DNA of 63,785 nt, filler included, from Psammoneis japonica (GCA_008632985.1; 4 parts of 4 records of this genome joined end to end with filler, not necessarily neighbours in it), one strand, 5' to 3'; positions 1-63,785 are shown, counted from the whole stretch's first letter. Notes: generated by a model not told the origin, from the letters alone. Translations and numbers: made by a program.

Positions 1-1519
1 GATCATGAGAATGGTGCTGCATTCAACATTTTTGTGATTTCTTCCCATGCCATCACCCCAAAAGAATGTGAACTTGATGGTTTTGCTTGCAATCACCTTG
101 AGAAGCTCCCTGCTTGGCCACAATGGCATGGTGAATTCAAGCAATTGGACCAGTGCCCACTTCCATCTGCTGGGAATGTTTGGTGCTCCCATCCCATGCC
201 CCAAGAACACTGTCACATGGTGGCCCCACTGGCAACACACAGTGCAAAATCAGGTGGCACTCAACAGCCCCAATGCTGTTGTGAGGGTTCACCCCAAGCT
301 GCTCCTGCTCTCCACTGCCTGCAGTCTGCACACTTGTTGTGTGTCAAGCAGCCAATCCAACAGTTGCTTTTTGCACTCTCTGCATCAATGGGATATCAAG
401 TTCATTCTGGTGATGCTCAAGATGCCTGTGCACACTCTTCAAAACCATCTGCTCTGGTTTGTGTGCAGGTTGATGAGACCTTTGCTGTGTGGCACAAGTC
501 ACATTTTGGTGTTGACCTGGATCACTCCATTGTCCCACCAACTCTCAATGCCTTGCAGGGTCACCCAGAATCTGCCACATTGACCAGTGCCAAGCTCCTT
601 TTTCACAACAGAACACATGACAAGTGTGTTTGCACTTCTGCCTTTCAGAGAAAGTGCACTCTCTTGCTCCAACAACAGGTTGATGATTTCTCCATTGTTT
701 GCCTGGAGGAATCACGTGTGATGATCAAGATCTTCAATGAACTCAGTGCTGCTCCACAACTCCCCTGTGAGGACTCCACTTCTTTCAAGCATCTTGACTC
801 ATGTGTGGACTGGAGCTCTTCAATGGTGTTGACATTCATCAGCATGATGATTCCATGTCTGTTGCATGTCATGGCTGCATTGAGGATTGGGAACTGACTT
901 CATGTGGTTGGATCACCCCATCTGCTGACAAATCTGCCTCTGACTGCCAGGCCATGCTGATGCCAGTGGAATCAGTCTCCTGGTTGTGCTCTGACATTGG
1001 TCACATTGAAGGAGATCTCAAGAACATGCAGCCAGAATTGAAGGAGGCTCAAGGAGGTTTTGGACATCGAGACCTGCTTGGTGAGTTGTTGTGTGTGCAT
1101 GTCATTTGCTGCCTTGACATCGGCTGTGCTGTTGTGACCCTTTCCAAGTTTGTGGTGTCTCCTGCTCTGGTGCACTGCGTTGCATTGAAAGGGATTGCCA
1201 ACCCTCTTCACTGCATGAAGTGTTGGGATGTCAGCTGCAAGAAGCCCATCAAGGACTCAACTTTGCCTGTGCACCCCCACAAACAACTTGAGGCAGACCC
1301 AACTCTCTCTTTGTTCCCATCAGCAGATTCTCTTGCACAGCTGCTTGCTTTCTTGGATGCATTCTGCAATGACCTTCATGACCATTGCTCTGCCACTGGC
1401 TGTGGTTGCATGATGTCAGCCAGTGAGGCAGTTCCTTGCCATTGCAAGACAAAAATGGTGGCTGCGACCAGTTCCATGAAGGCTGAGTGAGTTTTGTGTC
1501 ACTCACTGGCACCACTGCT
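1..1519 (+). mobile_element. Ty1/Copia (CoDi-like) LTR retrotransposon, degenerate RT and start of RNase H
   Basis: Frameshifted ORFs 34-897 and 801-1490 carry diatom-Copia motifs: CCCEGSPQAAP, GDAQDACAHS, ALQGHPES, LLQQQVDDF, FNGVDIHQ, LLGELLCVHV..DIGCAV, and DAxxND..SATG..ATSSMKAE (RNase H). Tyr positions read Cys/His. Confidence 0.9.
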
Positions 1520-1649
1520 GGCTGTTCGCCACCAACGCTGCTGGGGGGTGCGTCCCACTGTAGTTGGGAGGTGGCAGTTGGTGGTGTCAGCGCTTTGCTG
1601 GGGTTTCTTGCCCTCTTTTGGCTCACCAGCAACAAAGACCGCCTCCGAT
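1520..1649. repeat. Ngaro split direct repeat B2 (copy of 1812-1941)
   Basis: About 130-bp direct repeat (ggctgttcgccaccaacgctgctgggggg...gcctccgat). Confidence 0.92.
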
Positions 1650-1674
1650 GAGGCGGCTGGGCGGGAGTGGAGGG

Positions 1675-1810
1675 TCAAAAAGTTTGCAACTGCTGCTGCG
1701 GCCTCGGCAGGCGGCGACGAGTTGCAAAGAATGCCGCTGGCATTCAGGTCGTTCAAGGCTGCGTGCACTGGGGGGTGGATGCATCTGTCCTTCCCCCTGC
1801 GCTGCTAAAA
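1675..1810. repeat. Ngaro split direct repeat A2 (copy of 6404-6540)
   Basis: About 136-bp direct repeat (tcaaaaagttt...ccccctgcgctgctaaaa). Confidence 0.92.
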
Positions 1811-1811
1811 C

Positions 1812-1941
1812 GGCCATTCGCCACCAACGCTGCTGGGGGGTGCGTCCCACCACAGTCAGGAGGTGGCAGTTGGTGGTGTCAGCACTTTGCTGGGGTTTCT
1901 TGCCCTCTTTTGGCTCACCAGCAACAAAGACCACCTCCGAT
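1812..1941. repeat. Ngaro split direct repeat B1
   Basis: Matches 1520-1649, mostly with TG/CA differences. Confidence 0.92.
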
Positions 1942-2019
1942 CCGCCACTCTTGGAGGGCCAACAAGTAAAAAGAGGATGGGCCAGAGGCAGAGCTGAGGG
2001 TGGGTGAGGCGTGCAGCCG

Positions 2020-3432
2020 TCAGTTGGCGGGTGCTTCGGCTTGATTGATGATGTTTTGCGCGACGGGTGGGACATCGGAGCCAGGGAGTGATGTGAAATT
2101 GCCGCAGTTCAGGATTTTCGTGGAGAGTCCTGCGATTGACGGCAACGCTTGGGTGTGAAGGTGTCGAAACATTGCGTCGGATTTCCAACGTCCAACGAGA
2201 CGAATGATGTCGGTGTCGACTTTGGCGCACAGAAGTGCCACAGCACCACCGGCGTGGAGGCTGCGTGCTGTGACGTCCTTGGGCAGGAAGCCGAGGTGTG
2301 GCAAGGCTGCGGCAGACACTTGGAGCATTTTGGTGATGGCGCGGCTTGTGACGTGACCCCAATGCGTGCCGAGGCGCACGGCACACAAGGCGGTGTGGGC
2401 GTTGGCACCGTTTGAACATAGACAATGCACACGGCGGGCAAGGGCGAGGACCGGGCATGCCTTGGAATGAGAGCTTCTAGCATGACCTGCCGTTTCGCCA
2501 CGTTCCCGATTCTTCTGAGCATCAAAGGTGATGCTGCTGTGTGCAGCGAGGAACAGCTGGTGCAGTGGGCAGGTCAAGTGGTCTAGTGCGCGTTGTCCGA
2601 CGAGCAGTTTGATGTCGCCTGGGACCAAGGGGTCATTGTCTTTACTCTTGCAATGCTCACCCGGTCGCAAAAGGCAGAACAGGCCGATCCAGGACATGTC
2701 GATGACAGCGTTGTCGAGGGCGGAAGATTCATCAACAAGGGCTTGTGCATGGTGCACTGTTTGAATTGGGAGAGGCTTAACGCGGTTCGGTGGCGGATCG
2801 TCTTTGGAGTGCGCACTGTAAAGGCGAGCAAGGCGAGGATCCATGGTGCCATGTGGCGTTAACCGCGGGTCCGGGGCCCCCAGTTCGGTGAACGTCTTCG
2901 CGACGTGAAGGACTTCGTCACGAACGTGCGGAGCTGAGATTGGGTTGCCGCTGCGGCTGAGGCGTCCATCCCCAAGGCGACAGGCAAAGACTCGGAGCAT
3001 CGGGATCTTGTCTTGGACACCGGCAAGGAGAGGGTCTTTGACTCCGATGTCGGATGGGAAAGGCAACCAACATTTGGCCCAGACGGTGTCCGTGGCACGG
3101 GCGCGCTTGTCAGTGACAGCTTCGCGGGCCTTTGCCATCGCAAGGCGGAGATCAGTGAAGAAACGATGTCTGGCGGCGGGTGCAGCATTTGCCAAGGTTT
3201 CGTCTGTGGAGCAAGGCGAGCAAGTGTGGCAAGGAGGTGAGACGGCGTGGAAAATTTCCGGGAGCACGTGTCGGCAAGGATGTTCGCTGGGCCAGGAATG
3301 CAATGGAAGCGGGAGACATGTTGGAGCTTTCGTTGTTGTAGGCTGCCGGCCCGCAGCATGTCGGCGCCAGGGCCGTTGGTTGTGACAGAGCCTTTGCCGC
3401 ACCGGGAGATGGCAGGCGTGTTGTTGCAGCAC
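2020..3432 (-). CDS. Tyrosine recombinase of the Ngaro element (open ORF, catalytically mutated; true start uncertain)
   Basis: Motifs FCLLRPGE, QKN, CPV, ARSLHAGGA, IIRLVGRWKSDAMFRHLH. The expected catalytic Tyr (MxRYxH) reads His (codon 2161-2163) and the expected Arg of SLRxG reads His. Confidence 0.88.
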   Translation of the reverse strand: MLQQHACHLPVRQRLCHNQRPWRRHAAGRQPTTTKAPTCLPLPLHSWPSEHPCRHVLPEIFHAVSPPCHTCSPCSTDETLANAAPAARHRFFTDLRLAMAKAREAVTDKRARATDTVWAKCWLPFPSDIGVKDPLLAGVQDKIPMLRVFACRLGDGRLSRSGNPISAPHVRDEVLHVAKTFTELGAPDPRLTPHGTMDPRLARLYSAHSKDDPPPNRVKPLPIQTVHHAQALVDESSALDNAVIDMSWIGLFCLLRPGEHCKSKDNDPLVPGDIKLLVGQRALDHLTCPLHQLFLAAHSSITFDAQKNRERGETAGHARSSHSKACPVLALARRVHCLCSNGANAHTALCAVRLGTHWGHVTSRAITKMLQVSAAALPHLGFLPKDVTARSLHAGGAVALLCAKVDTDIIRLVGRWKSDAMFRHLHTQALPSIAGLSTKILNCGNFTSLPGSDVPPVAQNIINQAEAPAN

Positions 3433-5177
3433 GTGTGGACGGTGCGTTCCCTGACGTCGACGGCGACGCCGATGACGGCCTCTTGCAGTGCTGTTCCGGC
3501 CAGCTCAAGATCGGAGTTTGTCATGGTGCCTGCGGGGTTGTCGTCCGAAACAACAGCGGCTTGCAGATCCAGAGGCAGTGGAACTTGCCAGGCGGCAGGA
3601 GGGAAGTTGTCGTGAGAGCCTGGCAATGACACGCCGCCAAAACCAGGCTTTGCTGCGTCGCACGCCCCGCAGTGGTGCCCGTCGGCGGCAGGGAATAGTT
3701 CGGCAAGCCGTGTAGGACGCGAAACAATGTCCACAGCCAAGGTGTGCAAATCTTGGAGCTGGCGGCGCGTGTGACAGTTGATGCGAGTGCGGGAGTTGCT
3801 TGAGGTGGCCAGAGAGTGCTGGAGGTTGGAGAGCAGGCCAGCACCACCGGACACCACCAACAACATGCTGCGCACTTCGCCAATCAGTTTGCAGCATTGT
3901 TTGTTGGACATGCGGCAGCGAGGGATGGTGTCGGCCAGAATGTCAAGGAGGCGTTGTCGTCGATGCGGCGGCAACTCGACAGCCCCAGCCAGTGTGTCTA
4001 TGAGCCACCCCAAAATGACCTTGACAGTCGACCACGACGCGTCTCCTTTTAGGAGTTTCTTTAGGGAGACGGTTTCGCGCCGCCAGTGTGCATCAGACGG
4101 TGTGTCAGGACAGAAGACTTGGTCGTTGATGTGCAAGAGGCGTCGACGTAGCTTGTTGAGACGAGCCTTCGTTCCTTGTGCGGCGCAGATTTCATCATCG
4201 ACGTAGACATTGAAGCATTCCAGTGGCTGAGAGCCCCGTTGGGGTTTGCGACGAAGAGCGGCGGGAGAAGGAAGGCGTGACACGCGGCCAGTTGGAGCTG
4301 CACTGGAGGGCGGCGGCACGTCGATGCGCAAGATGTTGTCGCAAGGCGCTGGAGTGGCCGCCGCCTGTTCTAGCGGATGAACCGGAGTGTCCCAAGCTGT
4401 GGGTGAGCAGCTGTTTGCCAAGTCGACCACAGTCTCGGTTCCCACACAAAAGAATGGCAGACTCTCGGTCCAGCCCATGGGTGGGACGAGAGGCAGCGCT
4501 GTCAGCAGTTCCTCCCCAGGGCCTGCTGGGAAAGCCACCCCGAGCTCAGGCACATCCTGAGGTCGCAGCCCGACGCGACAGAAGCCATCGGACAGGTCAA
4601 GCTTCAGCATGTACACTGGGCCGTGCTTTGGGTCGGCATGGAAGACATTGCACAGGAACCTGTCGAGAGCTCGACCGAATTGCATGGCTTCTGGAGGGGC
4701 ATGCTTGACGGTCTCGTCGTTGATGCCGTAGAAGCTGCAATCAACGACAGTGCGCGGGCGGCGGTCGCGTTGCGGCACCACGCCCATCGGTGAGACGCAC
4801 AGGTGGGGCAGCTTGCAGGCTTCGCGGTGTGGCAGGACAGTCCAGTGTCGTTTCTGGATCATGTCCGCCACATCCGATTCGAGGAAGCCCAGGCACTCGT
4901 GAGTGGACGGATGGCTCCCGCGGTCGGTCGCCATCCGGACCTGGTGAGGGGGCCAGTCTTCCATTGAAAACTGGACCGGTGCTCCGTCGTTACGGAGTTT
5001 GGAAAGCAGCTTGGCAGAACAATGGGGCAGCTGCTGAACATTCTCGGCCAGACACGGCTCCCTGCGCAGGTGTGCGACGAACTGGCTCCAGCCCAAAGTT
5101 TGTAAGAGTTTGACATGTTCCTCTGCTAACTTGCCCAGTTCGTTGCTGCGTGGGTGCTGCTGATGCGGATCTGGCAA
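2859..5177 (-). CDS. Reverse transcriptase / RNase H of the Ngaro element (772 aa, overlapping YR)
   Basis: RT motifs SPMGVVPQRDRRPR, KLDLSDGF, PMGWTES, YVDD, LGWLIDT. RNase H motifs CDAA, NSDLELAG, NTPA, IPGPANILAD. Confidence 0.92.
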   Translation of the reverse strand: MPDPHQQHPRSNELGKLAEEHVKLLQTLGWSQFVAHLRREPCLAENVQQLPHCSAKLLSKLRNDGAPVQFSMEDWPPHQVRMATDRGSHPSTHECLGFLESDVADMIQKRHWTVLPHREACKLPHLCVSPMGVVPQRDRRPRTVVDCSFYGINDETVKHAPPEAMQFGRALDRFLCNVFHADPKHGPVYMLKLDLSDGFCRVGLRPQDVPELGVAFPAGPGEELLTALPLVPPMGWTESLPFFCVGTETVVDLANSCSPTAWDTPVHPLEQAAATPAPCDNILRIDVPPPSSAAPTGRVSRLPSPAALRRKPQRGSQPLECFNVYVDDEICAAQGTKARLNKLRRRLLHINDQVFCPDTPSDAHWRRETVSLKKLLKGDASWSTVKVILGWLIDTLAGAVELPPHRRQRLLDILADTIPRCRMSNKQCCKLIGEVRSMLLVVSGGAGLLSNLQHSLATSSNSRTRINCHTRRQLQDLHTLAVDIVSRPTRLAELFPAADGHHCGACDAAKPGFGGVSLPGSHDNFPPAAWQVPLPLDLQAAVVSDDNPAGTMTNSDLELAGTALQEAVIGVAVDVRERTVHTCCNNTPAISRCGKGSVTTNGPGADMLRAGSLQQRKLQHVSRFHCIPGPANILADTCSRKFSTPSHLLATLARLAPQTKPWQMLHPPPDIVSSLISALRWQRPAKLSLTSAPVPRTPSGPNVGCLSHPTSESKTLSLPVSKTRSRCSESLPVALGMDASAAAATQSQLRTFVTKSFTSRRRSPNWGPRTRG

Positions 5178-5205
5178 GCAGGCAGAGGAGGGCTGCAGGC
5201 CAGCT

Positions 5206-6368
5206 CTAGAGCTGACCGGCCCCCTTCCTCAGGTGGAGGCCGCCGGCACCGGCGCGGGTTGCCACACGAGATGCCGCGTCGGGCTCTTGAGCGCGAGCTT
5301 CCAAGGCTCGAGCGAAACACAGGTGCCGCTCGGCCTTGGTGCTGTTGGCCCAGGCGTGGTACAGTGCGGGTGAGGCCGCATCATCCGGTGCGCTCGAGAG
5401 CAAGAGCCACACGGGCGCAGTCTGCGGGAAGGCTTCCGTCGGAGTTTTGGGGGCGGCGGCCGCGACCGCTGCTGCGGAGCGTGTTGCTTCCGTGCGTGCT
5501 GCATCGGCGCGGACCATGTTGGCGAAGGCCAGCACCCGGTCGGTGTTGTCAACGGCCATGGCATCCAAAGCGGGCAGATCATGTGACAAGGTGCGCCAGC
5601 AATGCTCCTGTAGTCGGGCGTCCACCGCGAGTGGCGGCAAAGCAGCAGCACGATCACCCAGACACTGAACCGGGTCTGGATTCGCCGCTGTGTCGGTGGT
5701 GAGTGCCGTGCGCAACCAGTCGACAAGGGGACTCAAATCCCCCGCGCGTCCGTCGTTTTGAATCGCTCCTGCCAGTTCCCGCCAGGCCTGCAGCGGAGTG
5801 AGATCCCGGTTCAACATGAGATGCAGATGGGCGTGGGGCACCTGCGCGAGTCGATGGACGTAGATCGCACCGGCATCCGGGCGCCGTCGGTCTGCGGCGG
5901 CACCAAATCATCTTCATCTGCCAAAGCACCTTCTGGGGCGGCCATGTTGGCCACCGCAGGTGCCACTTGTGGGCCCACAGTTTCGAACGGAGTGTTGGGC
6001 AACTCGAGGATGGCAATGAAGTTACCCGGTAGTACGTCTCCTTGAAAACAGAACACACGGCCGTCCCACGGCGAAGTCTCCACCGGGTCTCTGATGCAAA
6101 CCGAGGGCCGGTGGATGCAGGCAATCCGGCAACCCGTGCCTTGCCGCACCAGCGCCAAAAAGGCCTTGGGTGCCACATCGCTCGAGTCGATGATGTGCTC
6201 GAGCAGCGCAGCAGCCGGCTCGGGAGCGGCGACGGTGGTGTCGTGTCGACGAAATAAGTTCGCGCAATCCCCTCCCAAGTGATCGCCTTGGGTCATCCAC
6301 TTGTCGTGGCATGTTTTTGGGGGTGCCGGTGGCGCTCCACCGGCAGCTGCAGAAGGGATGGCAGCCAT
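5206..6368 (-). pseudogene. Ngaro ORF1 (gag-like), frameshifted near 5830
   Basis: Consecutive Ala/Pro-rich ORFs 5811-6596 and 5206-5841 upstream of RT; ATG at 6368 just inside repeat A1 boundary region. Confidence 0.7.
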
Positions 6369-6403
6369 GAAGAGACAAAGGTTGGCGCATGTCGCTCCCT
6401 TTC

Positions 6404-6540
6404 TCAAAAAGTTTACAACTGCCACTGCGGCCTCGGCAGGCGGCGACGAGTTGCAAAGAATGCCATTGGCATTCAGGTCGTTCAAGGCTGCGTGCGTTGG
6501 GGGGGTGGATGCGTCTGTCCTTCCCCCTGCGCTGCTAAAA
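6404..6540. repeat. Ngaro split direct repeat A1 (5' end of element)
   Basis: Matches 1675-1810. Confidence 0.92.
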
Positions 6541-7200
6541 AAACATGTCCTGTGCCTGCAATGATCAGTCCTCAAGAAGCTTGGTTGCCCCCTCAAGATG
6601 ATGCCACTCCTCTCTTTGTTGACAGCGAATCAGCACCATCAAGATCGCCAACAATTGTGTTCCCACCAAGCAATCTTGCCACATTGACATCCAGTGGTTT
6701 GTCATCCAAGACTGGAAAGAAGATGGGGGTGCCATTGCCAGACACATCCCAGCCATTGTCAACCCCAGCGATGATCTCACCAAGGCTGCTCTTGGTTTGA
6801 TGCCACACGCCCATCATGCTCACCAGCTCATGGGATGCTGCCACTGAGTCTTTTGTCCTGACTCTGAATGGCATCTGCTGAATTGCCCTTTTTGTGTTTT
6901 GTTCTCTTGTTTGTTGGTCATCTGGTCTACATTGCTCTGGAGACCAACTGCTGTCTTCCCTTTCATTCTGTCTGTGATCTGCACTGCCTTTTTAGACATG
7001 CCAGATCAGAGGAGGGTGTCAGTCAACCTGTTCTGCTGCACACGGTGCCAGACTGTTTGCAGATGACAGCCAGGCATCCAGACCAGACAGACAAGCAGAT
7101 CTCTCTGAGATTTGCTCGTCTCACTCTTTCTTGCTGGCACCCATGTTGTCACTGTCACTGGTTTGTGGGGAGGACCCTTGCACTTGTTGCTCTTGATTTG
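6541..7200 (+). mobile_element. Copia remainder: RNase H C-terminus, polypurine tract (7008-7016) and start of 3' LTR (TG at 7017; LTR end not resolved)
   Basis: KHVLCL.., TPLFVDSESA, HIDIQ, IQDWKEDG, HIPAIVNPSDDLTK; AGAGGAGGG immediately followed by TGTC. Confidence 0.8.
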
Positions 7201-8653
7201 CTGCTCTGATGGCTGCTGTTTTCTCACACAGTGCTTGGGGGGGGCTTGTCTTGCTTTGAGTGCTGGGGGTGTCCTGGTGCCACACCTGCTGGGCTGCACA
7301 CTCCTTTTCTTCTGCTGTGCACCATCAAAGATCATCTGTGTTGCAGCTAAGTTCCTGCCAGCTGCTGCTTTTGTGGCGCAACTCATGCTTTCTGCATTGT
7401 GTGCCACACAGGAGATGCACCCTCCAGACCCAAGAGCACTGCTGTGGACATCTCCATCATGAGTGTGTGGCAGCAACAATGCATTGAATGTTGTCAAGGT
7501 CACATTCTGCAACCCCAATCAGCAGCAAGACAGAGTGGGGGCTGAGAACAAATGGAACCAAAAAAATGGGGTTCTCTCACAAAGCACATGGTGCAGCTGC
7601 TTCTGCACTGGAAAAGTGCAGTCTTGACTTCAAAAAATTGATGAGCACAAAACACACTGTGCTGACAGCCAGACCCCATGCTGGTCCCAGGCACCTGGTG
7701 TTGCAGGGGCACTTGTCACTGGAGCCAAAGAGGGTGCCAAGGAGGCAGGAGATGCAACAAACGAGTCCAGAAACCCTTTGCCACCCTTGGCAAGGGTGAC
7801 ACCAGCATTGTTGCACTGACTGTTCACAGCAGCCTCAAAGGCTTCTGGTGCAAACTTGCCAAAGCCTGCATGAGTGCTCACGGTGGAGCCATCATCTTGA
7901 ATGGTGACAAACATCATTGAGCCTTTACAAATTTTGGGGTGTCTTGAAGAAGAAATCATGCCCCAGACCATCATGGATGTCTGAGGAGAACCATTGTTTG
8001 TGCAACATCCACTCACAACTGAAGCACTGTTGGCCTTGGTCCCTTCCATGCCAAGGAAAACACCTTCACAACCCTGGATTGCAAGCAAGGAGAGATGATT
8101 GAAAGGATTGCCATCACCATGGGTGCAGTCATGCACAGAAGATTGGTGGCAAGGAGATGGGAAGATCATTGGTGGAAATGGTGAAGAAGACAGAAGACTG
8201 TGGGGGGCAGCAGTGGTGCAGAAGATGATTGGTGGTGACAGCATGGAAGATTGGCAGTGACAGTGTGCGTGCCAGTCTTTACACTTGGAGTGTGAGCAAA
8301 TGAGGAGCGCGCCAATTGCTTGTTGATGACATGCACAAAAAACCAAAGGAAGTCCTGAGCAAGGAAAATGTTTTCCAGGTGTTTTTTGCTCCTTGGGATG
8401 AAAAGCAGTCCAGCACACTTTAGAGCCAGTTCTACAAGCGTGCCACAGAACCACATCCAGTCCTGTGTGGCGCAGTTGATGGCAACGTGCTCGATCATCA
8501 TGGTGAGCCATCCGTGATGGGTGTTTTGCCAAAGTGCAGCAATGTGATGAGCGCCAAAAACGAGCAGTCAAACGAGTCAGTCATTTTTTGTTTGATCTGT
8601 CACGCGGAATTTCGAAAACGCAGATTCTTAAAAATCCTCATTCCCCAAAACGG

Positions 8654-14856: not shown

Positions 14857-14884
14857 CTGTTTCTCTCTTGTCCTGGTTTTGGGC

Positions 14885-24185: not shown

Positions 24186-24194
24186 GGACATGTT

Positions 24195-52399: not shown

Positions 52400-55300
52400 A
52401 AGGTGCAGCTGCCACTCAGAAGAGCTGCACACATGCCGAGAATGCTGCCATGACATGCACTGGATGTGCTCACTTTGCTCTTGACTGACAAGTCCTCCAC
52501 CACCTCCTGAAAGCAAAAGACAAACTCCAAGATCTTGGAGAGCCAGCGCAGCTGGCTGAGACCAAGCAAGTTGCAGACTTCCTCAAATGAACATCTGACC
52601 CACAACATCAAGTCATCAGGAAGCAGCTGGCCAAAGGGATGCATTTGCTCTTGGTTGGCTTTTCATGTGCAGCTGTCTGTGGCCCTTGTGCTGCAGGGAA
52701 CTCAACTGTGAACTCTCCAGTCATGGATCTGACTTTTTCTGTGGGCTGGTTGCAATCCCCAGCATTGTTCTCTGCCTGGTTCAACAACAACAAAATGAAA
52801 CTGCAACACTTGCTTTCAATGCATGTGAGAAGCACAGCAGCATGTTTCCTTCATTGTCATGAGACCTGCTGCCCCTCTGCTTTTCTCACTGCAGTCATTC
52901 TGGACAATGTGGCCATTGGTTGACACTGCCTGGAAAGTTTGATGGTTCCCTTTCCCATGCCTTTGTGTTGTCCTTGAATTTCCCAATGCAAAAATCCTCC
53001 ACAACCTTGCTTTTGACAGACCAACACACGAGGGGAAAGGATCAGCAAAATTGCTCCACAGTGGACAAGAGGCAGGTTCAACATTTCCACATTGGCATGA
53101 AAGGCATGAAATGCTGAGATTGAGAACAAAAACTAAAGAAAATCAAGACACAAAAGGGGGCACAGAGAAGCCAATTTGAATGTGGACATTGCCGCCTGTG
53201 CAGCAAGAGGACAAAACCAGCCTTGTGCAATGTCTCCTTTGCAACTCTTGGTTGACAGTCAAAGGGAAAAAACACAAGCCATCCAGAGTCCAGAAAAACA
53301 TCATTTTTGGAACTCCACAAGTCCATGCCTGTTCTCAAATCTCCAGCACCTGGGGATTGCTTGACAAGCTGATGCTTGTCATGACTGCCGCCAATGCAAG
53401 TCACATGACTCTGGATCAAACAAAGAGCTGTGTCATCCTGGATGACCCTTTTCTCCGCTGCAATGTGCGGAAGAACACAGCAGACATGCTCTGTGGCCAC
53501 CTGGGCAATTGACAATTTCAGCCATCATGGTTCTGAGTGATGCTTTTGCCCACTGCCACAATTCCTTCAGTTTTGCACACAACACATCAAGCCCACTTCA
53601 TGCAACTGAGATTGACACATTTGAGTGCTGTCTGAAACAAAGCTGCTTCAAGTGTTGATGAAAACTGAAAACCCAAATGAGCTGAAATGAGCCATTGTCC
53701 AGCAGCTTTGGATGGAGCAATGTCTTGCAACTTGCAACTTGAGTTGCTCTCTGATCTTCTGTCATGAATCTGTGGCACAGGTTGCTTCTGTCCACATCTC
53801 TTCCTCATCTTGTTGCTTCAGTCTTGAAATGCGGGCATGGCAGTTGTCACCAATTGCTGGACAACAACAATTTTGTTCCACATTCTGGACTCAGCAGGAG
53901 CAACACCTGTGCAGCGGTCTTTTCTTCTGGTGGTTTGGCACTGTGTGTTGCAGTTTGGACAGCAAACAGCAGATTGCAACTCTCACAACCAATGGTGGAG
54001 CATTCCTGTGCAACATTTTTCTGGGGGCAAACAGCAAGTTTTTTCTCGATGGCACACTGCAGCATTGGCGCACTTTCTTTCCTTTGTTGAAACATGTGGC
54101 ATTTTTGGTTGAAACCAGCCCATGACATCTTGTTTTCCACTTGCAAACATGTGGTGGGCCCCCTAAAAAGAAACCCCACGTCAGTGCTTGACCAACCAGC
54201 GTGAACATCTGGGGGCAACTCCACCCACACTGCCACTTTTGACATGTCGCTCTCAACGAGTGCATGATGTGCCTTTTTGTGCACTTTGGTCATGGAGGCA
54301 TTTGCGACCTTTGATTGGGTGGAGACAACAACAGCAAAAAGGCATGAGAAGCACAGCAATGTGAGTGAAAGCATCCAAAGGAAAAAGTTGAGCGGCACAA
54401 CCGCTGTGCCACATGTTTCTGATGTGACTTGGAAAGATGCTGTGCAGTTGAGTTGCTCACCCACATGGCCCCTCCATGCAGACTCTGGCTCGTGGCATGC
54501 AGTGGTGCATGCCATGCACCAGTGCTCACGTCATCAGCACAGGCACTCACATGGCCTTGGCACTCAGTGCAGGCAGCAAGCAGCGGGTGCTCGCACAGCA
54601 TCAGCAATCAGCAAGCAAGCAAGCACATGGCAGCACCGTTGCTCACATCATCAGCACAGGCACTTGCACAGCATGGCGCAGGCACTTGCTTGTTGCGTGT
54701 GATGCAATCGCTGGCAGCCAATGGAGTTTTTTCTGTGCAACCATGATGAACGCGCAATGATTCTGACAGCAACAAGTTGGTTTGTTCTCAACAGTGCATT
54801 GTGGAACTGCCATGTGTTCTTTTTTTCATTGAAGCACGCAACCTTTTTGGTTGAAAACAGTGCGAACATCTTTTCATCGGCTTGCAAACATGAACCACCC
54901 AAACATGAGATCCAGGAAGAAAAAAGGATGCAGGCAGGGAGACCACGACACAAAAGCCTTTTCTGGCTTTATGAAAAACATCATGAGTTTGTGTCTCAGT
55001 TTCCACACAGACATTTGTTTGAGGCTCTTGTGAAGGAACAATCTGCCAGAGATGAGTGCATCACAGAGAAAGAGATTGCCATCCAAGAAAACAAGCAAAA
55101 AAGATCCTTGCATTTCTTCAAGCTGTTGTCTTGAAAACAGTTGGAGATGCCGGAAAGGTGATGCNAGTCCAAGTCGAGAAACGGTCCACTGCAAGTGACA
55201 ATGCTGTTGATGTCAAAATGAAAGACACCAGTGACATTGACACATCCTGGGGCACTGGCTCAACAACAATGGAGGTTAGAGGGGGCTGGCAACACATTGA

Positions 55301-58279
55301 ATGGAAGTGCTTCCTGTGCTGTCACCACCTTCAAACTGAGCCGTTGTGCAGTGTTCCCTCTGCATGTCATGATGGCAACAATCAAAAAGGCAGTTTGCAT
55401 GAAAACAAGACTGAGCACTCAAATGCCATCATTGAGTCAGACGAAGGGCCATCCAGTGGTGTTTTGGAACTGTCTTTGTACATTCTGATGTGCAGTGCAA
55501 AAAAGCAACACTGGTGCATTCCAAAAAAGAGATTTGGCAAAAACCAGCTCAAAAATCTGTTGTTGTTCCTCTTGAAATCAACGTGAATTGTTTGTTTGTG
55601 CTGTTGCCCACTTCACCCCCAAGTTGCCTGCTGTCTGGCATTTGCCTTTTGTGTGTTGCGCGACACTGTGATCTTGGGTTGGCTGAACATTGTGGTGCAC
55701 AACTGACAACCGTGAAGATGCCGAGCACGCATTTTTCACAGATCAGCAGTTGATCTCTGCATCTCAACCATGGAGGCTAAAAGGTGAAGCACAAAGAGAA
55801 GGAAGGCTTTTCAAGACACGTCTTTGTCATCAAGTGATGAATCAGAGAGTGGCTCATCTCAGATCACAAAGAGGAAGATGGCCAAGGCCAAGAAAGACAA
55901 CCCGGCTGATTCCGCATTTAATTTCCAGTTTGCACCTGTGATTCTTCAATTTTCCAGTCACTGGAAAGAAGAAAGTTTCATTCAATGACAACTTCTTGGA
56001 GGGGAAAGTGACAATTGGTCCTGATGATGATTGGACCGCATTGCACTCAGCCGCAAAGGGTTTGACAATGGAAGAGAAGCTTGAGGCACTGCAAACAAAA
56101 GAGAAGAGAGAGCCAATCCCATGTCTCTTGAATTTGAGCTGGTTGAAGCACTCATTGTGGGGGAAGGTGACATTGTGTGTGGCAGTGACAAGTGTGAAGC
56201 AGGTGGGGAAAATTGGGGAAACATTGGTCAGTCGCACAATGTCAACAGCTCTGGCACGTGCATCATGCTGCACTCCATCTGTCAAACATTGTGGCAGGCT
56301 GTCTGTCAGCCATTGTGCCAGGTGCACCACACTGCATTCTGTCCATTGACCATTGCAGCAAGTGCAACAAACTCTGTTCTAATCTGCTGGAAACATTGCA
56401 AATTTAAGTTAGAGACGGTGCTCTTGCTTGCCGCCACGGCAAGCACATGCCTCCATTGCCTCGTGTGCTCTGAGATTGGGCCCTGGTCTTTGCAGCTCGG
56501 TTTCCTTCTCAAAAGAGGCCGCTGAAGGGCAATGCTTGCAACTGGGGACCTGACAATGACAGCAAGTTGAGCGAGCCATTTTGGGAGTGATGCTGTCAAN
56601 NNNNNNNNNNNNNNNNNNNNNNNNNNNNNNNNNNNNNNNNNNNNNNNNNNNNNNNNNNNNNNNNNNNNNNNNNNNNNNNNNNNNNNNNNNNNNNNNNNNN
56701 NNNNNNNNNNNNNNNNNNNNNNNNNNNNNNNNNNNNNNNNNNNNNNNNNNNNNNNNNNNNNNNNNNNNNNNNNNNNNNNNNNNNNNNNNNNNNNNNNNNN
56801 NNNNNNNNNNNNNNNNNNNNNNNNNNNNNNNNNNNNNNNNNNNNNNGCTCCTGACAAACTTTTCAATGAGTGGGTTGCTCTCTTCATCTCTTGCATTGCC
56901 CTGAGGAACAATGTCGCAGGCCTCCTTTGTGAATCCTTTGATGTCACAAGCTGCAAGCAATGAATGCCAAGCCCATTTGTTGATCTCAAAGGATGTTGAT
57001 CGAACAGGAGTTGCACCTCGTCAAGACCACCAGCACCATCGTCTTGATGAATTTTGATCTTTGTGTGACTCATCCAAGTGTGACAGCATTTCAGGTCAAC
57101 AAGCTGCAGCCTTCAATGCTTGGAGATGCGACTGCATTTCTTTCTTGTCCATTTCCATGGCCTTGTTTGTCACAACNNNNNNNNNNNNNNNNNNNNNNNN
57201 NNNNNNNNNNNNNNNNNNNNNNNNNNNNNNNNNNNNNNNNNNNNNNNNNNNNNNNNNNNNNNNNNNNNNNNNNNNNNNNNNNNNNNNNNNNNNNNNNNNN
57301 NNNNNNNNNNNNNNNNNNNNNNNNNNNNNNNNNNNNNNNNNNNNNNNNNNNNNNNNNNNNNNNNNNNNNNNNNNNNNNNNNNNNNNNNNNNNNNNNNNNN
57401 NNNNNNNNNNNNNNNNNNNNNNNNNNNNNNNNNNNNNNNNNNNNNNNNNNNNNNNNNNNNNNNNNNNNNNNNNNNNNNNNNNNNNNNNNNNNNNNNNNNN
57501 NNNNNNNNNNNNNNNNNNNNNNNNNNNNNNNNNNNNNNNNNNNNNNNNNNNNNNNNNNNNNNNNNNNNNNNNNNNNNNNNNNNNNNNNNNNNNNNNNNNN
57601 NNNNNNNNNNNNNNNNNNNNNNNNNNNNNNNNNNNNNNNNNNNNNNNNNNNNNNNNNNNNNNNNNNNNNNNNNNNCATTGCAACAAAAGAATCAACACAA
57701 TGGATGATTTTGGCAAAATTGTTGCCGTCACTTTGAGTTGTCACACAACAATTTTTTCTGTGATGCTTGCTCTCTGGCATGAGCTCCAGTGCAAATCTCT
57801 GTGTGCAATGCACTGACGTGCAATCCACATTGAGTCCACTGAGGGAGTTTGTGATGCATGTCCAGGAGGACCATGAAATCAAGAATGCTTTTTGTTTGTT
57901 CCAAATGCCTCTTTCCCCAACATTGCCCACTGTCTGACAACAGCCTTTTGTGTCTCAAACAACGTCGTGCACTTGGTGTTGTTGAAAATGATGGCCCACA
58001 AACAACATTCAGTGACCTGCCAAGCACGGATTTTCTTCTCTCTGGCAGTCATCGGCCAAGCAAAAGAGCAACCTAAATGGACTGTGTTTTGTTGAACTGG
58101 CCAATTCATTGCCACAAAGATCAACCTGCTCTGCACAGGTGTGGTTTGCCGGAGGTTTTCAGCAGGCAATCATTTCATCAATTTTTGTTGGCCTTGGGTG
58201 AAAATGCCATCCGCATCTGAGCTGGTGCTAAAACTCAGTGCTCAAACCCATGTCAGCAAGCGAGTGATCAACAGCTGGA

Positions 58280-58732
58280 GTGTGCTGCTGCAGCGCACTT
58301 CAGAGTGCAGCACAGGGCTGCAACCATGTGGTTGACTGCATGGAGACCTTTGTAGAATGGCAAACAACCATGATGACATTGCACTGCACTTTCTGCCAAA
58401 GCCAGCCAATGACATGAATCCTTGATGATGCAATCAAGACTCACTTGTGTCTTGACAACATTCTCACCACCTGACATCCAATGCCTCCAGGTGCTCAAAC
58501 AATGGCTCAAAAGGCAAGCACCTGATTTGTTTCAAAGCTGTGACCCAACTTCCAGTGGCAGGTTTGGGCACTCAGCAGCATTCTCGGTTTTCTTCCCAGG
58601 GCTTCAAAACTGGCAGAGAATCTTGAAGAATGTCCATCAAATGCATTGACATGCAAACACTTTCTTTCTCCAACATTTGGCCTTCCACTCAATTGCAGAG
58701 TGGCAGTCAGACAGAATTGGGTCCAGAAACAA
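58280..58732 (-). pseudogene. Hypermutated duplicate of ~44010-44480 (3' end and downstream DNA of the 44242-45321 gene)
   Basis: cagtcagacagaattgggtccagaaac is identical in both copies; colinear for more than 400 bp. Confidence 0.93.
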
Positions 58733-58832
58733 NNNNNNNNNNNNNNNNNNNNNNNNNNNNNNNNNNNNNNNNNNNNTTAATTAATTAANNNNNNNNNNNN
58801 NNNNNNNNNNNNNNNNNNNNNNNNNNNNNNNN

Positions 58833-60783
58833 TGCCCAAACCGTATTGGCAAGGGCTTGAGGCTTAAACTTTTCCAATTTCTGTATGGACACTCGGGCAA
58901 TGTTGCTCAAAAGCAACGGAGACGAATGGTCCAATGGTGGCATATGCCCAAACCGTATTTGCAAGGTTTTGTGGGTTAAACTTTTCCAGTTTCCGCATTG
59001 ACACTTTGGCAATGGCATCAAAAAGCAACGGAGACGAGTGCCCAACGGTGGCATATGCCCAAACCGTATTGCAAGTTTGCGGGTGGAACTTTTCAAGTTT
59101 CCGCATTGACACTTCGGCAATGCATCAAAAAGCAATTGAGACGAATGTCCAACGGTGGCAAATGCCCAAACCGTATTTGCAAGGTTTTGCGGGTTAGACT
59201 TTTCCAGTTTCCGCATTGACACTTTGGCAATGGCATCAAAAAGCAACGGAGACGAATGTCCAATGGTGGCATATGCCCAAACCGTATTTGCAAGGTTTTG
59301 CGGGTTAAACTTTTCCAGTTTCCGCATTGACACTTTGGTAATGGCATCAAAAAGCAACGGAGACGAGTGCCCAACGGTGGCAAATGCCCAAACCGTATTG
59401 CAAGGTTTTGCGGGTGGAACTTTTCAAGTTTCCGCATTGACACTTCGGCAATGGCATCAAAAAGCAATGGAGACAAGTGTCCAACAGAGGCAAATGCCCA
59501 AACCGTATTCGCAATATCTTGAGGCTTGAACTTTTCCAGTATCCGCATTGATACTTTGGCAATGGCATCAAAAAGCAATGGAGACGAATGTCCAACGGTG
59601 GCAAACGCCCAAACCATATTCGCAAGGGCTTGAGGCTTGAACTGTTCCAATTTCCGTATGGACACTTCAGCAATGGTATCAAAAAGCAATGGAGACAAGT
59701 GTCCAACAGAGGCAAACGCCCACACCACATTCGCAAGGGCCTTGGGTGGAACTCATCAAGTTTGGAAATTGATGATTCAGCAATGGCATCAAAAAGCAAT
59801 GGAGACGAATGTCCAACGGTGGCAAACGCCCAAACCATATTCGCAAGGGCTTGAGGCTTGAACTGTTCCAATTTCCGTATGGACACTTCAGCAATGGTAT
59901 CAAAAAGCAATGGAGACAAGTGTCCAACAGAGGCAAACGCCCACACCACATTCGCAAGGGCCTGGGGTGTGAACTCATCAAGTTTGGAAATTGATGATTC
60001 AGCAATGGCATCAAAAAGAAACGGCGATGAGTGTCCAACGGTGGCATATGCCCAGACCGCATTAGCAAGGCTTTGCGGACTGAAGAGGCTCATCTTTGGA
60101 ACTGATGCCATGGCGAGTTCATCGAAAAGCTCAGTTGAGGATTGTCCAGACTTTGCAAATGCCCACATGGTCATGGACAAACCCCTTGGAGAGAGACTGC
60201 CTTTTACTGCACGCACTCGCCCTCCCAATTCATCCCAAATGGCTGTCCCAAACTTTAACCTGCTCACGCTGGATATTTTTGCTAGAGAATGTGCAATCGA
60301 ACCAACCGAGTCAGAAGCATCACAGTCTATCACTTTCATGGNNNNNNNNNNNNNNNNNNNNNNNNNNNNNNNNNNNNNNNNNNNNNNNNNNNNNNNNNNN
60401 NNNNNNNNNNNNNNNNNNNNNNNNNNNNNNNNNNNNNNNNNNNNNNNNNNNNNNNTCATTTGTCGCTTCTTCTGGTAAATGTCAAGAACTCCAGAAACTC
60501 TTTCGATGTTTCTTAGGTCGGGTAATCTCCAATTTCGGTTGGCATCGCATCGCTTTTGTTTTGTTTGAGGCCCTCTTGCCCCTCTTGCATCACGCCTCTT
60601 GGAACGATTTCCATCACTCCTCCTACCACCATCTTCACTTTGTTGGGTCGTCATGAAATAAGGCGACGCATTTTCCCTCCAAAACGCCAAACGACTCGAC
60701 TGACAAACATGTCGATGAATCGGCACGTATCCAACAACGCTGTACAGCGCCAACAGCAGCAACAGCTTTCTCATCCCAAACAT
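58833..60783 (-). CDS. Helical-repeat RNA-binding protein (OPR/HPR, RAP-associated type), about 12 37-aa repeats, N-terminal signal peptide; gapped, 3' end missing, several 1-bp frameshifts
   Basis: Unit FxPQxLANxVWAFAxVGHxSPLLFDAIAxxSxxKLEx with ~111-bp period; leader MRKLLLLLALYSVVG-YVP. Confidence 0.85.
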
Positions 60784-61657
60784 GTGCCACGATCTTTGAA
60801 GTCTGCAAAAGCCGTTGAGTCAAATTCTCTCGTTTCTCTCTTGCAACACAATGATTGAGAATGGCAGCTTCAGCTTGTTAACCGCAACACTCAATGCAGT
60901 TTTTGATGTGCCTTACGTCGTTGTGGGTCGGTTTCTCAACACTTGCACTCCCCCGGTCTGTTCCTCGCCCCTGCGCGAGCGGGGGTTGTTCGACGCCGGT
61001 TGCATTGTAGAAGAAGCGGTGTGCAAGACTGCAAGCGCCAAGCAGAGCCGCAGCAGGCTTCAATTTCCGGTTTCTGTGAGCCTTGTTGCCAAGCTCATCC
61101 AACTGGACTTTGCTGGTCACAACAGGGATGAGTCGACTCTCAAGGTGTCAACCTGCCCAAGCTGAGCAAATTGCTTGTGGGGCCTGGCCTCCACATGCTG
61201 ACAAATTCACAGCAGAGAAAGAGCCTCGTCACCTGCAGATGCCAGGGCCCTGGAGGGGCTTGATGATGCAAAGGTTGCAACCACTGTTCGAGTGATGCAA
61301 CAGCCCAATGATGATGGGCTGCACACTGTGCTCTCCAGAGCCAAGCAACGTTGCACGCCCCAGTGCTGTTGTTTGTCATGCAGGCAGTGGTGTTGGGGGC
61401 AGTGAAGGGCGCAGGCCATTGGCACTTAGACTTGCCAAAGTTGACATGTGCTCCCATCGTGCCAGGGATTGCAGAGACACCCACACACCAGTCTCCAGCA
61501 CCTGTGCACATTGCAGTGCCCAGGACAACAGAAAACACCGTGTGCAATGGGCAGCGCAGCAACAGGCTCAACACATCCTGTGGGAGTGACTGAGTGAGTG
61601 ATTGCACAGTGTCAAAATGCAGTGTGTTTGGGACAACATTGCACTGCCTGCCAACTC

Positions 61658-63785
61658 AAAAAAAAAACCAATCTGCATTTAAAGTGCTGTCACTCCCTTG
61701 CCAGCTGAGCCGGCACCGGCAGACCCACACTTCCAGTGCACCGTCAAGTGCGGCAGAAGCTTGCTTGGATCAGCCAGAACGTGGGTGCCACCAAGAGATG
61801 ACACCCCTCCAAATTTAGTGAGTGCTGCAAAGTCTTCACGCTTTGCCTTCTTGAGGCCGCGTCTGCATTCTTTGCCACAGCAGATTCATGGTCCGTGAAG
61901 CAGAGTGGGGCATGTGATCATTGACTGAATCTAAGAGCACATCCCTGTCTTTGGCAAGATGTTCCTGTTGTTTGTTTCACACAGCCACAAGCTCAGCTTC
62001 CACCTGTTGGTGCTGAGATGATTGCCTTGACTCTGCGTCATGGCCATGAACCTCTCAATTGTGTTCTTCCCAAAGTTCCCACCAGAGCTTCCAAATGAAA
62101 GTTCCTGTCTGCACTCCCCAAACCAGAGGCGGACGATTTTCCCTGCAACACTTCTCCAGCAGGCCCATCTTGCAAAGGCGCATCTCCTGAGAAACATTTC
62201 AAAGGGTGGAAACCTGCCGACAAACACTTGTCACTGTCCTGTTTCTGACGGGGCTCTCCACAGCACTTGCAACATTGGGGCAGCATCTGACTCGTGCATC
62301 ATCTCACCTCGGAACCATGCTTCAATGGATGTCAACAACAAATCTCAAAGATGTGGCATTGTGTCAATTTTGTCACAGTGTTTGCACAGACCTTGTGAGA
62401 ATTTACAACATCAGGCCTCATTCTCTGGACAGCGTAGAGTGTCATGATTGCGATCTTCCATTGGGCTTTTGCATGCAAGACAATGATGTGGCCACACTGG
62501 ATTGCATTGACGAGTGATTTTGTTTGCAGGAAGAAGTTCATGGATGAGTTTGACGGTGGACACGTGTTTCTTGGAGTGCTGTTGGACAAGAGTTGCGTGA
62601 ACATTCCAGTCAATCTTCTCCATGGTTGATTCATCCCAGTCGTTCCATTCCCAAACACATGCAAGGAGAGCAGGAGCTGTGGCGGTGTGTCGAACAGTGG
62701 ATTTCAGTCCTGCAGCAACAGCTCCATCTGCAAGGCTCAGGTGCAATTGGCAGCAGGAAATGGGATCACCACCTTTGTGTCAGATTCATGTTGGCCTTGA
62801 TGTCATCCTCTGCCAATTTTTCAGCATGCACATTGACTTGAGCGTCAAGTGGGAGAGTTTCAACTGGAGAGTGTCTGTCCTGGTGCCCTTTCACCCACTC
62901 GATTGCGGAGCCTGACCTGGGAGGAGGAGTTGAGAACTTGTTTGGTGGCTGTGAGCATTTGATGTGTTTCATTGATGACATCCCAGTTGGATGACAGTGC
63001 ATTGGCATTGTGCTGACGTAAATGAAAATCTCTGTCGGACCGCTCTTGTGCCGAAGGGTCAATTGAAGGGCAACCATGAGACAGTCTGGTGGAAAGCACC
63101 CAAACCAAGGCCTTGTTGTCACACCAGTTGTCAACCCCTTCATGCAATGACATCTTGCAGAACTCAAGCAAACAAAAAGCAAACCATGCAAGGGACAAGA
63201 AACCATGAGCCTTGGTGCGATGAGATTGACGGCATTTGACCAAATGCCAGACCAGCGCAGTCCACCAAGGGTCTGCCCTTGAATGTGACAGTCCATCCAA
63301 AGGTTGCATTCTGATGAACAACTGAACCATTGCTGCCTGCCACAAGGTGACATGATGCAAAATGATCCACCATTTCTTAGAGAGAGGTGTGAAATTTGAT
63401 GGCAGAGAAGAGAGTTGACTCCCAGGAAGGCAAGGCATGCAGGCAGTCTGCAAAAAGGTCAGGCAAGGGAGTGCTTGTTTCCACCAAGAGTTTTGGGCAA
63501 TGAGGCACATGTTTCCATCGTTGATCATGGGTGGTGACCATCTTGTCTGGGAATGATGAGTCAAAGGGGGAGGGAACAGTCTTGGTCTGATGCAGCAACA
63601 TCGTTGCTGTGCCCTGGACCAAAAACACATCAAAATGGTTGGAGATCAAATGTGCAAGTGCGATTCTTCTGGAGACCAGCATGCAGAGGATTGCATCCTC
63701 ATCTTAGAAGGGGAGCCAGCCAGTCACCCAAGGGAGCCTTCAGGCAAACTGAGTCTTGACGACACAACAACCCGCACACAAACGC
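61658..63785 (-). mobile_element. Second Ambal-like LINE (RNase H to 3' end), continuing beyond the window
   Basis: AGSNGSV..ATFGWT, WCDNKALV, NWDVINE, EWVKGHQD, AQVNVHAEKLA, CLACKSPMEDRNH..RC; 3' UTR homologous to 31460-31563, ending GG-T10. Confidence 0.88.

Follow-up and report, generated by a model that had tools for sequence, protein, structure and literature searches.

The 63,785 nt of DNA from Psammoneis japonica (GCA_008632985.1) analyzed here, called the window throughout, carry the footprint of an A:T to G:C hypermutation that is specific to the dinucleotide TpA and lies over a decay of CpG. This footprint is real and very strong. In the pooled depleted DNA (four blocks, 50,667 non-N bases) we counted 186 TA where 3,279 were expected, a ratio of observed to expected counts (O/E) of 0.057, and the ratios for TG, CA and CG were 1.63, 1.65 and 0.52. 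The change is an A:T to G:C transition that is confined to TpA and hits both strands.

Results

TA is erased in blocks beside ordinary DNA

Expected counts were taken from base composition, and O/E was tabulated by block with linkers masked and also as a 250-nt map. The linkers are artificial and identical (100 nt, N44-TTAATTAATTAA-N44) and occur at 19,879-19,978, 39,452-39,551 and 58,733-58,832; the nine TA inside them are non-biological. The window is thus a string of at least four separate scaffolds joined end to end, and neighborhood among the pieces is undemonstrated. The two pieces that lie whole between linkers measure 19,473 and 19,181 nt, which suggests that the scaffolds may have been ordered by size.

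Over the whole window O/E was 0.16 for TA, 1.64 for TG, 1.65 for CA and 0.62 for CG. The first scaffold piece (1-19,878) is TA-depleted, with TA O/E ranging from 0.01 to 0.16 and CG O/E from 0.06 to 0.86; its TA ratio is 0.01 in 1-1,500, 0.16 in 1,501-6,900 and 0.07 in 6,901-19,878. The second piece opens with a satellite block (19,979-24,167, TA O/E 0.03), and the rest of it (24,168-39,451), which holds a gap of 998 N, is depleted as well (0.02-0.05, with 0.05 in 24,168-37,750). The third piece starts depleted (39,552-40,600, TA O/E 0.05) and then alternates. A TA-normal island at 40,700-45,600 (TA O/E 0.62, CG 1.01) is followed by the most extreme internal block (45,601-47,600, with TA at 0.02, CG at 0.19, TG at 1.69 and CA at 1.92), by a second TA-normal island at 48,101-51,050 (TA 0.64, CG 1.09) and by a depleted block at 51,051-58,732 (TA 0.05, CG 0.30). 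Beyond the last linker an intermediate stretch (58,833-60,820, TA 0.30, CG 0.77) gives way to a depleted block (60,821-63,785, TA 0.07, CG 0.35). The two islands pooled (7,851 nt) hold 353 TA where 561 were expected (O/E 0.63), and even they are therefore mildly short of TA.

The boundary near 45,600 is sharp, with TA dropping from 4-5 to 0-1 per 100 nt, and the boundary at 47,600-48,100 is a gradient. As 39,552-55,164 is free of N, the alternation between depleted and normal stretches is real inside a single piece. An initial annotation, made from the sequence alone, had drawn up a map of TA-poor and TA-ordinary stretches. We find the void where it was drawn; the stretch at 58.8-60.8 kb, which had been called ordinary, is intermediate (0.30).

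The TA void is equal in the AT-rich satellite (GC 0.35) and in the GC-rich retroelement (GC 0.60). Over the whole window AA and TT reach O/E of 1.38 and 1.32, and AT is likewise not depleted. About 80% of the window is probably decayed repeat, satellite and pseudogene DNA of the nuclear genome. Small leftover scaffolds are likely to be repeat-rich, so this depleted share is uninformative on the genome as a whole. GC-biased gene conversion was considered and ruled out, as GC content is 0.49 versus 0.465 and AT, AA and TT are undepleted.

Direction of change in a repeat with a TA-normal copy

The summed frequency of TA, CG, TG and CA is conserved between depleted and normal DNA (0.2404 versus 0.2486), which is what transitions within the class of pyrimidine-purine steps give. 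Inside that class TA plus CG falls from 0.101 in normal to 0.035 in depleted DNA, and TG plus CA rises from 0.147 to 0.205.

The direction of change could be read from a dispersed repeat that has a TA-normal, ancestral-like copy at 44,068-44,478 (plus strand) and a decayed copy at 58,320-58,732 (plus strand). Their identity is 79% and rises to 93.8% when A/G and C/T are each treated as one letter. The 24 TA of the normal copy appear in the decayed copy as 12 TG, 9 CA, 1 TA and 2 other steps, and the 19 CG as 8 CA, 8 TG, 1 CG and 2 others. Among the 69 differences there are 19 A>G and 19 T>C, and the remainder consists largely of changes at CpG, with 11 C>T and 11 G>A. Contexts were counted in 385 well-aligned columns. 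A->G changes occurred at 12 of 22 sites after T, compared with 4/35 after A, 2/23 after G and 1/31 after C. T->C changes occurred at 8 of 23 sites before A versus 3/18, 3/28 and 5/30 before the other bases, and C->T changes at 8 of 17 sites before G versus 1/31 before A and 1/19 and 1/24 otherwise. These data bear out the initial proposal that the void arose by mutation of TA to TG or CA: 21 of 24 TA changed in this pair, and the TA-normal relatives and the replacement of Tyr by His or Cys described below point the same way.

Two transition processes are thus likely to feed TG and CA, namely ordinary CpG decay and the TpA-specific A:T to G:C hypermutation. They are separable, since TA is lost and CG kept (TA O/E below 0.25 with CG O/E above 0.8) in 7 of 45 one-kb depleted bins; CG O/E is below 0.4 in 17 of the 45, and the Spearman correlation between the TA and CG ratios of these bins is 0.31. 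CpG decay is a second source of TG and CA which the initial annotation had missed, and it explains only part of the excess.

Strand symmetry and the T-A-Y context

Overall we counted 5,134 TG versus 5,240 CA, and the local TG/CA skew stays between -0.10 and +0.11, in agreement with the strand symmetry proposed initially. Along the copy pair the outcomes are unclustered by strand (9 runs by hand count versus about 10.6 expected), which points to many independent single-site events. TG and CA are no longer TpA, so that each TA would mutate once, no CG would be made and TG and CA would form a sink. If the blocks are at equilibrium, TA loss would be at least about 27 times faster than reversion from TG or CA.

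Survival of TA was then resolved by its flanking bases, each NTAN count being scaled both to the total of pyrimidine-purine steps between identical flanks and to the islands. It was 0.62 for TTAA, 0.28 for CTAA/TTAG, 0.10 for CTAG, 0.02 for GTAC, 0.008 for ATAT and 0 for ATAC/GTAT; the table includes TTAA from the linkers, which make up 6 of the 52 TTAA in depleted DNA. A multiplicative per-strand model fits these values (r 0.95); in it survival depends on the base that follows the A on its 3' side and is 0.75 for A, 0.44 for G, 0.12 for C and 0.07 for T. The products agree. With a pyrimidine on the 3' side the larger gain is that of TG (TGC +0.17 vs CAC +0.11; TGT +0.18 vs CAT +0.13), and with a purine there it is that of CA (CAA +0.15 vs TGA +0.08; CAG +0.14 vs TGG +0.07). 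From survival by 3' base and from product gains, the target is T-A-Y (Y, pyrimidine) on the strand whose A changes.

Independent mutation of duplicated copies

Repeat pairs in the window are 94-100% identical when transitions are collapsed. Two direct copies of 100 nt at 14,092-14,191 and 14,231-14,330 (plus strand) are 85% identical, and 100% identical after purine/pyrimidine collapse; all of their 15 differences are transitions, of which 5 form doublets with TG in one copy and CA in the other (TG<>CA). Eleven repeat pairs together contain 247 transitions, 94 transversions and 38 aligned TG<>CA doublets. When the transitions were shuffled within pairs 1,000 times, 8.2 +/- 2.6 doublets were obtained, with a maximum of 16. 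Judged from these alignments, a TG<>CA doublet marks an ancestral TA (or CG) that appears to have been resolved differently in each copy, and the copies appear to have mutated independently, in place, after duplication.

The same steps vary in a 23-bp satellite, which forms arrays in both orientations at 19,979-24,167 (TA O/E 0.03), 25,757-26,792, 35,209-36,363 and 37,265-37,435. We collected 231 units with at most 6 mismatches from two different scaffold pieces. The variants of their CATG core are chiefly CGTG or CACG. Both the satellite and the units of a 111-bp repeat described below contain many flips of pyrimidine-purine steps, and no polarity was obtained from either.

Loss of conserved tyrosines

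The retroelement in the first scaffold piece contains a pol-like open reading frame (ORF) of 789 stop-free residues (2,862-5,228, minus strand) with a YVDD box and a DxSDGF(Y>C)R motif. Its TA O/E is 0.16 at GC 0.61, and its 789 residues include 3 Tyr, 30 His and 28 Cys. Two relatives from metagenome contigs, L001 and L002, share 39-40% identity with it and have TA O/E of 0.66-0.68 at GC 0.60 and 0.55. The initial annotation had named equally TA-poor relatives as the observation that would speak against a mutator; the relatives are not equally poor (0.66-0.68 vs 0.16). Of the alignment columns where they carry Tyr, 133 and 657 show His in the pol-like ORF and 216, within the DxSDGFYR motif, shows Cys; the ORF keeps Tyr at columns 166 and 345 (YVDD box).

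The pol-like ORF probably encodes a reverse transcriptase, as suggested by the YVDD box and the DxSDGFYR-like motif that are conserved in all three aligned sequences. Its nearest Atlas clusters stand at 0.96-0.99, and two of them carry RVT_1 on 28% and 52% of their members. A profile search of the PDB returned HIV-1 reverse transcriptase only (E 2.1), a PDB search with the single sequence returned nothing at E<=1, and the AlphaFold model was unusable (mean predicted local distance difference test score 33.5). The ORF has no Pfam match. Its TA-normal relative L001 has none either, so that this blank reflects divergence of the family and not mutation. A DIRS/Ngaro-type retroelement would be expected to carry a tyrosine recombinase in place of a DDE integrase. 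We found no match to Phage_integrase (tyrosine recombinase) in the ORFs adjoining the pol-like ORF, in the window or in L001, where divergence may hide one; the label 'Ngaro' for this element is plausible.

Tyrosines are also missing from a host gene with TPR_12/TPR_10 matches in Pfam, whose first part (47,507-48,112, plus strand) sits in the depletion gradient. The gene has 27 homologues at E<=0.001, with best-alignment identities of 46-66% among the matches listed. At five positions most homologues carry Tyr (7/8, 17/19, 22/23, 14/15 and 10/13), and here the codons are CAC, TTC, TGT, TGC and CAC, coding for His, Phe, Cys, Cys and His, so that Tyr is kept at none of the five. At CpG the same gene shows four changes of Arg to Gln and one of Arg to His, which are accounted for by CpG decay. 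The gradient over this gene suggests that genes beside depleted blocks take collateral amino-acid changes.

The initial annotation had held that elements of all classes exchanged Tyr for His or Cys. This stands for the pol-like ORF and the TPR gene; the Copia, LINE, hAT, Ginger-like and piggyBac-like elements it had listed were not found with any of the tools applied. Its other proposal, that the change was imposed on the chromosome rather than by the polymerase of an element, is upheld. The void was imposed on unrelated resident DNA and was not inherited via one element's polymerase, since the retroelement, the 23-bp satellite, the tandem duplicates and the 5' part of the TPR gene are all affected.

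Comparison with public sequencing data

The window was compared with contigs of a public sequencing run (X1) and of a second run of the same sample (X2), which is labelled as possible DNA. An X1 contig of 4,301 nt covers 52,371-56,500 of the window and differs in 6 letters; the TA-poor sequence is thus probably no assembly quirk, with X1 being possibly the assembly's own source data. Altogether 423 differences separate the X1 and X2 contigs from the window, and the 40 of them examined are too few to give a substitution spectrum. At 42,387-42,388 and at 46,714-46,715 the window has TG where X1 contigs have CA, and X2 also has CA at the first site; these are possibly differences between alleles or close paralogues. 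X2 covers 16 of 30 bins, and these comprise the TA-normal islands and their edges only (40,700-44,700 and 46,900-52,000). Its contigs skip 45-115 nt in places, once with GT..AG ends, which is transcript-like; we did not use X2 as evidence on expression either way.

Gene islands and other features of the window

The edges of the island at 40,700-45,600 (40.7-41.3 and 44.1-45.8 kb) are multi-copy in X1 and normal in TA. Up to 11 distinct X1 contigs match per site, and the summed word depth is 1,000-3,000 versus 63-200 elsewhere. One X1 contig joins 45,426 to 40,975, the two edge parts being contiguous in other copies. As these multi-copy edges keep their TA, being repeated is insufficient for erasure; either the TA-normal copies arose recently or the process comes in episodes. 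The multi-copy element contains an ORF of 411 residues (44,245-45,477, minus strand). No homologue of it was found at E<=0.001 among 5,293 word-sharing candidates (226-720 residues) of a collection of 5.8 billion proteins, and none among 1.84 billion representative proteins.

Pfam was searched at E<=0.01 with 353 of the 456 listed stop-free ORFs, comprising all 203 of at least 110 residues and the first 150 of the 253 with 70-109 residues, which span 1-42 kb and leave 103 short ORFs outside the scan. No reverse transcriptase or transposase family was matched by these 353 ORFs, and relaxing the threshold to E<=1 for 46 long ORFs added no transposon family. A weak rve_3 match lies at 17,840-18,217 (minus strand, E 0.0086). 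Within depleted DNA, an ORF at 15,202-16,275 (minus strand) matches RING-H2 finger families (zf-ANAPC11 at E 9.9e-6 and zf-RING_2 at E 4.1e-5). A Helicase_C ORF lies in the first TA-normal island (43,126-43,827, plus strand); an Atlas search with it pointed to no lineage. At the edge of a depleted block, an ORF at 51,097-51,534 (minus strand) contains a primase zinc finger of the Herpes_UL52 type (E 4.7e-7) and may represent a host gene of the PrimPol kind or belong to a virus-like element. ORFs in the satellite have low-complexity Pfam matches. Scans of the window for tRNA genes and Rfam families returned no match.

The intermediate stretch at 58,833-60,820 is occupied by a frame-shifting array of FAST_1/DUF1601 repeats on the minus strand (37 residues or 111 bp per unit), in which depletion of both TA and CG is intermediate. 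The array changes reading frame in the part 58,833-60,078, which probably reflects the decay of a gene or a misassembly. Its FAST_1/RAP-like ORF (59,350-60,819, minus strand) has 77 homologues, 9 of them with a named organism: seven are from Thalassiosirales (Thalassiosira exigua, T. oceanica, Cyclotella meneghiniana four times and Skeletonema marinoi), one from a pelagophyte and one from a dinoflagellate. Bigelowiella is absent among these nine. On the named homologues of this one ORF, the window would be placed in an ochrophyte, probably a diatom.

A 60-bp tandem repeat at 9,720-10,224 (8.4 copies, 72% matches) lies within an open frame of 401 residues rich in Ser, Leu, Val, Pro and Gln. The first 40 kb contain, on both strands, 1,614 TGA, 155 TAA and 78 TAG triplets. 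TAA and TAG are lost along with TA, and long false ORFs therefore arise in every frame. Most of the 124 stop-free frames of at least 150 residues in the window are surely not genes.

Discussion

We consider it probable, for the account as a whole, that the window consists largely of decayed repeats in which CpG decay and TpA hypermutation have acted together. CpG would have decayed to TpG or CpA, as expected of 5-methylcytosine (5mC) deamination. A TpA-specific A:T to G:C hypermutation would have turned TA into TG on one strand, read as TA to CA on the other. Each TA would be struck once, its product being no longer a target, and either strand would be struck with equal chance, site by site, with a preference for T-A-Y. 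Gene islands and young-looking multi-copy elements would be spared, and the process would bleed a few hundred bases into a neighboring gene. The blocks are sharp and contain a retroelement, satellite and pseudogenes; the process may be confined to silent or foreign DNA. The process may be carried out by a host enzyme directed to silent or foreign chromatin, and it may serve genome defence.

The chemistry is a more tentative matter. A deaminase with the TadA/ADAT fold may convert adenine at TpA to hypoxanthine, which would be read as G at the next replication. We regard this as the preferred candidate, though short of probable. Similarly possible, and again short of probable, is that diatoms and chlorarachniophytes share an old enzyme system that edits silent or invading DNA at T-A-Y until TpA is gone. 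If this were true, a defence resembling repeat-induced point mutation (RIP) with opposite polarity would extend across the supergroup of stramenopiles, alveolates and rhizarians, its enzyme would be a DNA adenine deaminase or a thymine oxidase, and leakage of the process would speed the evolution of neighboring genes.

Several points weigh against the account as a whole. The three linkers make the window a set of joined scaffolds, by which a single 'domain' is undemonstrated; the initial description of the erasure as domain-wide is unsupported, with the linkers at 19,879, 39,452 and 58,733 marking where scaffolds were joined. The window holds a single pair of DNA copies with a TA-normal partner (24 TA sites), and the 'normal' baseline of the context analysis is 7,851 nt only. 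X1 is possibly the source of the assembly, its independence is undemonstrated and the comparison was made at the level of contigs only. In the FAST-like repeats, Tyr of the homologues aligns with Phe in 58%, Tyr in 13% and His in 7% of cases; this comparison is uninformative because the repeat carries Phe where the homologues carry Tyr. The evidence here consists of a footprint. Finally, eukaryotic ADAT2/3 act on anticodon contexts in which A34 is mostly followed by G or A, and bacterial TadA acts on U-A-C. The 3' preference seen here (Y >> G > A) mismatches ADAT2/3 and fits the U-A-C of TadA better.

The footprint could also have begun with thymine. A TET/JBP-type oxygenase would make 5-hydroxymethyluracil (5hmU) or 5-formyluracil (5fU) at TpA in silent DNA, and these bases would mispair with G and give T to C changes. 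TA is palindromic, so that TA to CA on one strand reads as TA to TG on the other; the symmetric footprint therefore cannot separate an adenine-first from a thymine-first process, and T-A-Y reads equally well as R-T-A (R, purine). We know of no TET/JBP-type enzyme or 5hmU-like base in diatoms, and 5hmU and 5fU would have to be sufficiently mutagenic. TET/JBP homologues of dinoflagellates do make 5hmU, a base that is concentrated there in repeats and associated with the silencing of transposons, and the accessible part of that study reports no T to C footprint (PMC11572971). For a similar footprint in the chlorarachniophyte Bigelowiella natans, adenine deamination is favored by the authors, as stated in the part of the preprint available to us (Mettrop et al., bioRxiv 10.64898/2026.01.13.699255). 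We consider the thymine-first route unlikely.

Error-prone repair is very improbable. Excision repair in methylated heterochromatin would recruit a polymerase like DNA polymerase eta, which makes WA to WG errors (W, A or T), a candidate named in the initial annotation. A->G transitions do dominate, and TA is lost in DNA that also shows CpG decay. WA includes AA, however, and A->G changes occurred at 4 of 35 sites after A versus 12 of 22 after T, so that this candidate fits poorly. Furthermore, AA and TT are undepleted (O/E 1.38 and 1.32), and 7 of 45 bins lose TA and keep CpG.

It is just as improbable that no mutator acted at all, the DNA being natively poor in TA through foreign origin or selection, or a modified base having been misread as G. 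Such a view gains from the islands, which are themselves mildly TA-poor (O/E 0.63), and from the possible dependence of the assembly on X1. Native poverty is contradicted by the TA-normal and decayed copies of one repeat, by the TA-normal relatives of the retroelement and by the equal void in satellite (GC 0.35) and retroelement (GC 0.60), and selection against TA by the loss of conserved Tyr. A base misread on both strands should produce TG/CA conflicts at every site and broken contigs; where shattered contigs would be expected, the 4,301-nt X1 contig matches the window with 6 differences.

To an ADAR-like A to I editing of double-stranded transposon RNA that was then reverse-transcribed into new retroelement copies we give next to no credence: ADARs favor U before the edited A, on which the accessible text of the Bigelowiella preprint remarks likewise, but satellite, tandem duplicates and the edge of the host TPR gene are also affected, TG and CA are mixed and unclustered on one 400-nt copy (12 vs 9), and copies that diverged in place after duplication already contradict this reading.

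TpA hypermutation, if the same process acts in diatoms and in a rhizarian alga, would amount to a widespread killing of invading DNA in major marine phytoplankton. With the footprint in two distant lineages, a comparison of gene content between species that bear it and species that lack it should make the enzyme findable. An enzyme from nature that converts A:T to G:C in DNA within a defined context would also be of interest to base editing. Annotation is affected as well: the loss of TAA and TAG breeds false ORFs in TA-depleted DNA, and families stay unrecognized, Pfam being nearly blank there.

Comparison with known systems

RIP in ascomycete fungi changes C to T, mainly CpA to TpA, and creates TpA. 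The process described here resembles it in its dense transitions on both strands of resident repeats and in the destruction of conserved codons. A sharp contrast with neighboring genes and leakage into adjacent sequence are further likenesses, as far as the accessible part of the source goes (PMC9998398). Fungal RIP itself was rejected as an explanation, as TpA is destroyed here (O/E 0.057) and C->T occurred at 8 of 17 sites before G and 1 of 31 before A. As to the duplication trigger of RIP, duplicates were mutated independently, yet a repeat found in up to 11 X1 contigs keeps its TA. In its available text the same source relates the diatom DNMT4 enzymes to the RIP enzyme RID and describes diatom transposons as methylated (PMC9998398). 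DNMT4 could be relevant at most to the CpG part of the footprint.

5mC-driven CpG decay is recognizable in the copy pair, where 16 of 19 CG became TG or CA, and in the CG O/E of 0.52 overall and down to 0.06. It differs in that it cannot remove TpA, and 7 of 45 bins have lost TA with CpG preserved. TadA, ADAT and ADAR enzymes share with the process the conversion of A to I, read as G, and a preference for U or T before the target A. Their natural substrates are RNA, and the preference for the 3' base in the window (Y >> G > A) differs from those of ADAR and ADAT2/3. The 5hmU of dinoflagellates is alike in arising by enzymatic modification of T:A pairs, in its enrichment in repeats and in its link to transposon silencing; as described in the accessible part of the source, it is an epigenetic mark without a demonstrated T to C footprint (PMC11572971).

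The closest system is that of B. natans, in which integrated viral DNA undergoes hypermutation of TpA to TpG or CpA. According to the part of the preprint (April 2026) available to us, giant-virus and virophage regions account for 231 of the 302 single-nucleotide mutations that arose de novo in the nucleus, at a rate of about 6e-7 per site per generation in viral regions, and 230 of the 231 were A->G or T->C, every one on TpA. Hypermutation was episodic and seen in 11 of 15 lines. The genome holds 124 clusters of windows that are poor in TpA and rich in CpA and TpG, with enrichment of reverse-transcriptase and DDE domains, and the authors suggest that deamination of adenine in DNA serves as a defence, for which they nominate an ADAT2 homologue (Mettrop et al., bioRxiv 10.64898/2026.01.13.699255). 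The available text makes no mention of diatoms or of a wider motif.

The two footprints agree in consisting of A:T to G:C changes only, at TpA only, giving TpG or CpA by strand. In B. natans the changes are confined to particular regions of an otherwise normal genome, and in the window depleted blocks alternate with TA-normal DNA. The two footprints differ in several respects. B. natans is a rhizarian, whereas the best named homologues of the window are from diatoms. TA is near saturation of loss here (O/E 0.057) compared with a Rho of 0.45 given in the accessible text for a giant-virus insert. The footprint in the window spans satellite, tandem duplicates, a retroelement and a gene edge and coexists with CpG decay, and the T-A-Y context found here is not given in the available preprint text. 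The rate was measured there, and here we have the footprint alone. The initial annotation had known of no description of the erasure in diatoms. The full-text literature searched, outside of which lie most subscription journals, likewise describes no such erasure in diatoms, nor any other than that reported in B. natans. The kind of process is thus already known from B. natans, and new here are the lineage, the saturation, the classes of target, the T-A-Y context and the leakage into a gene.

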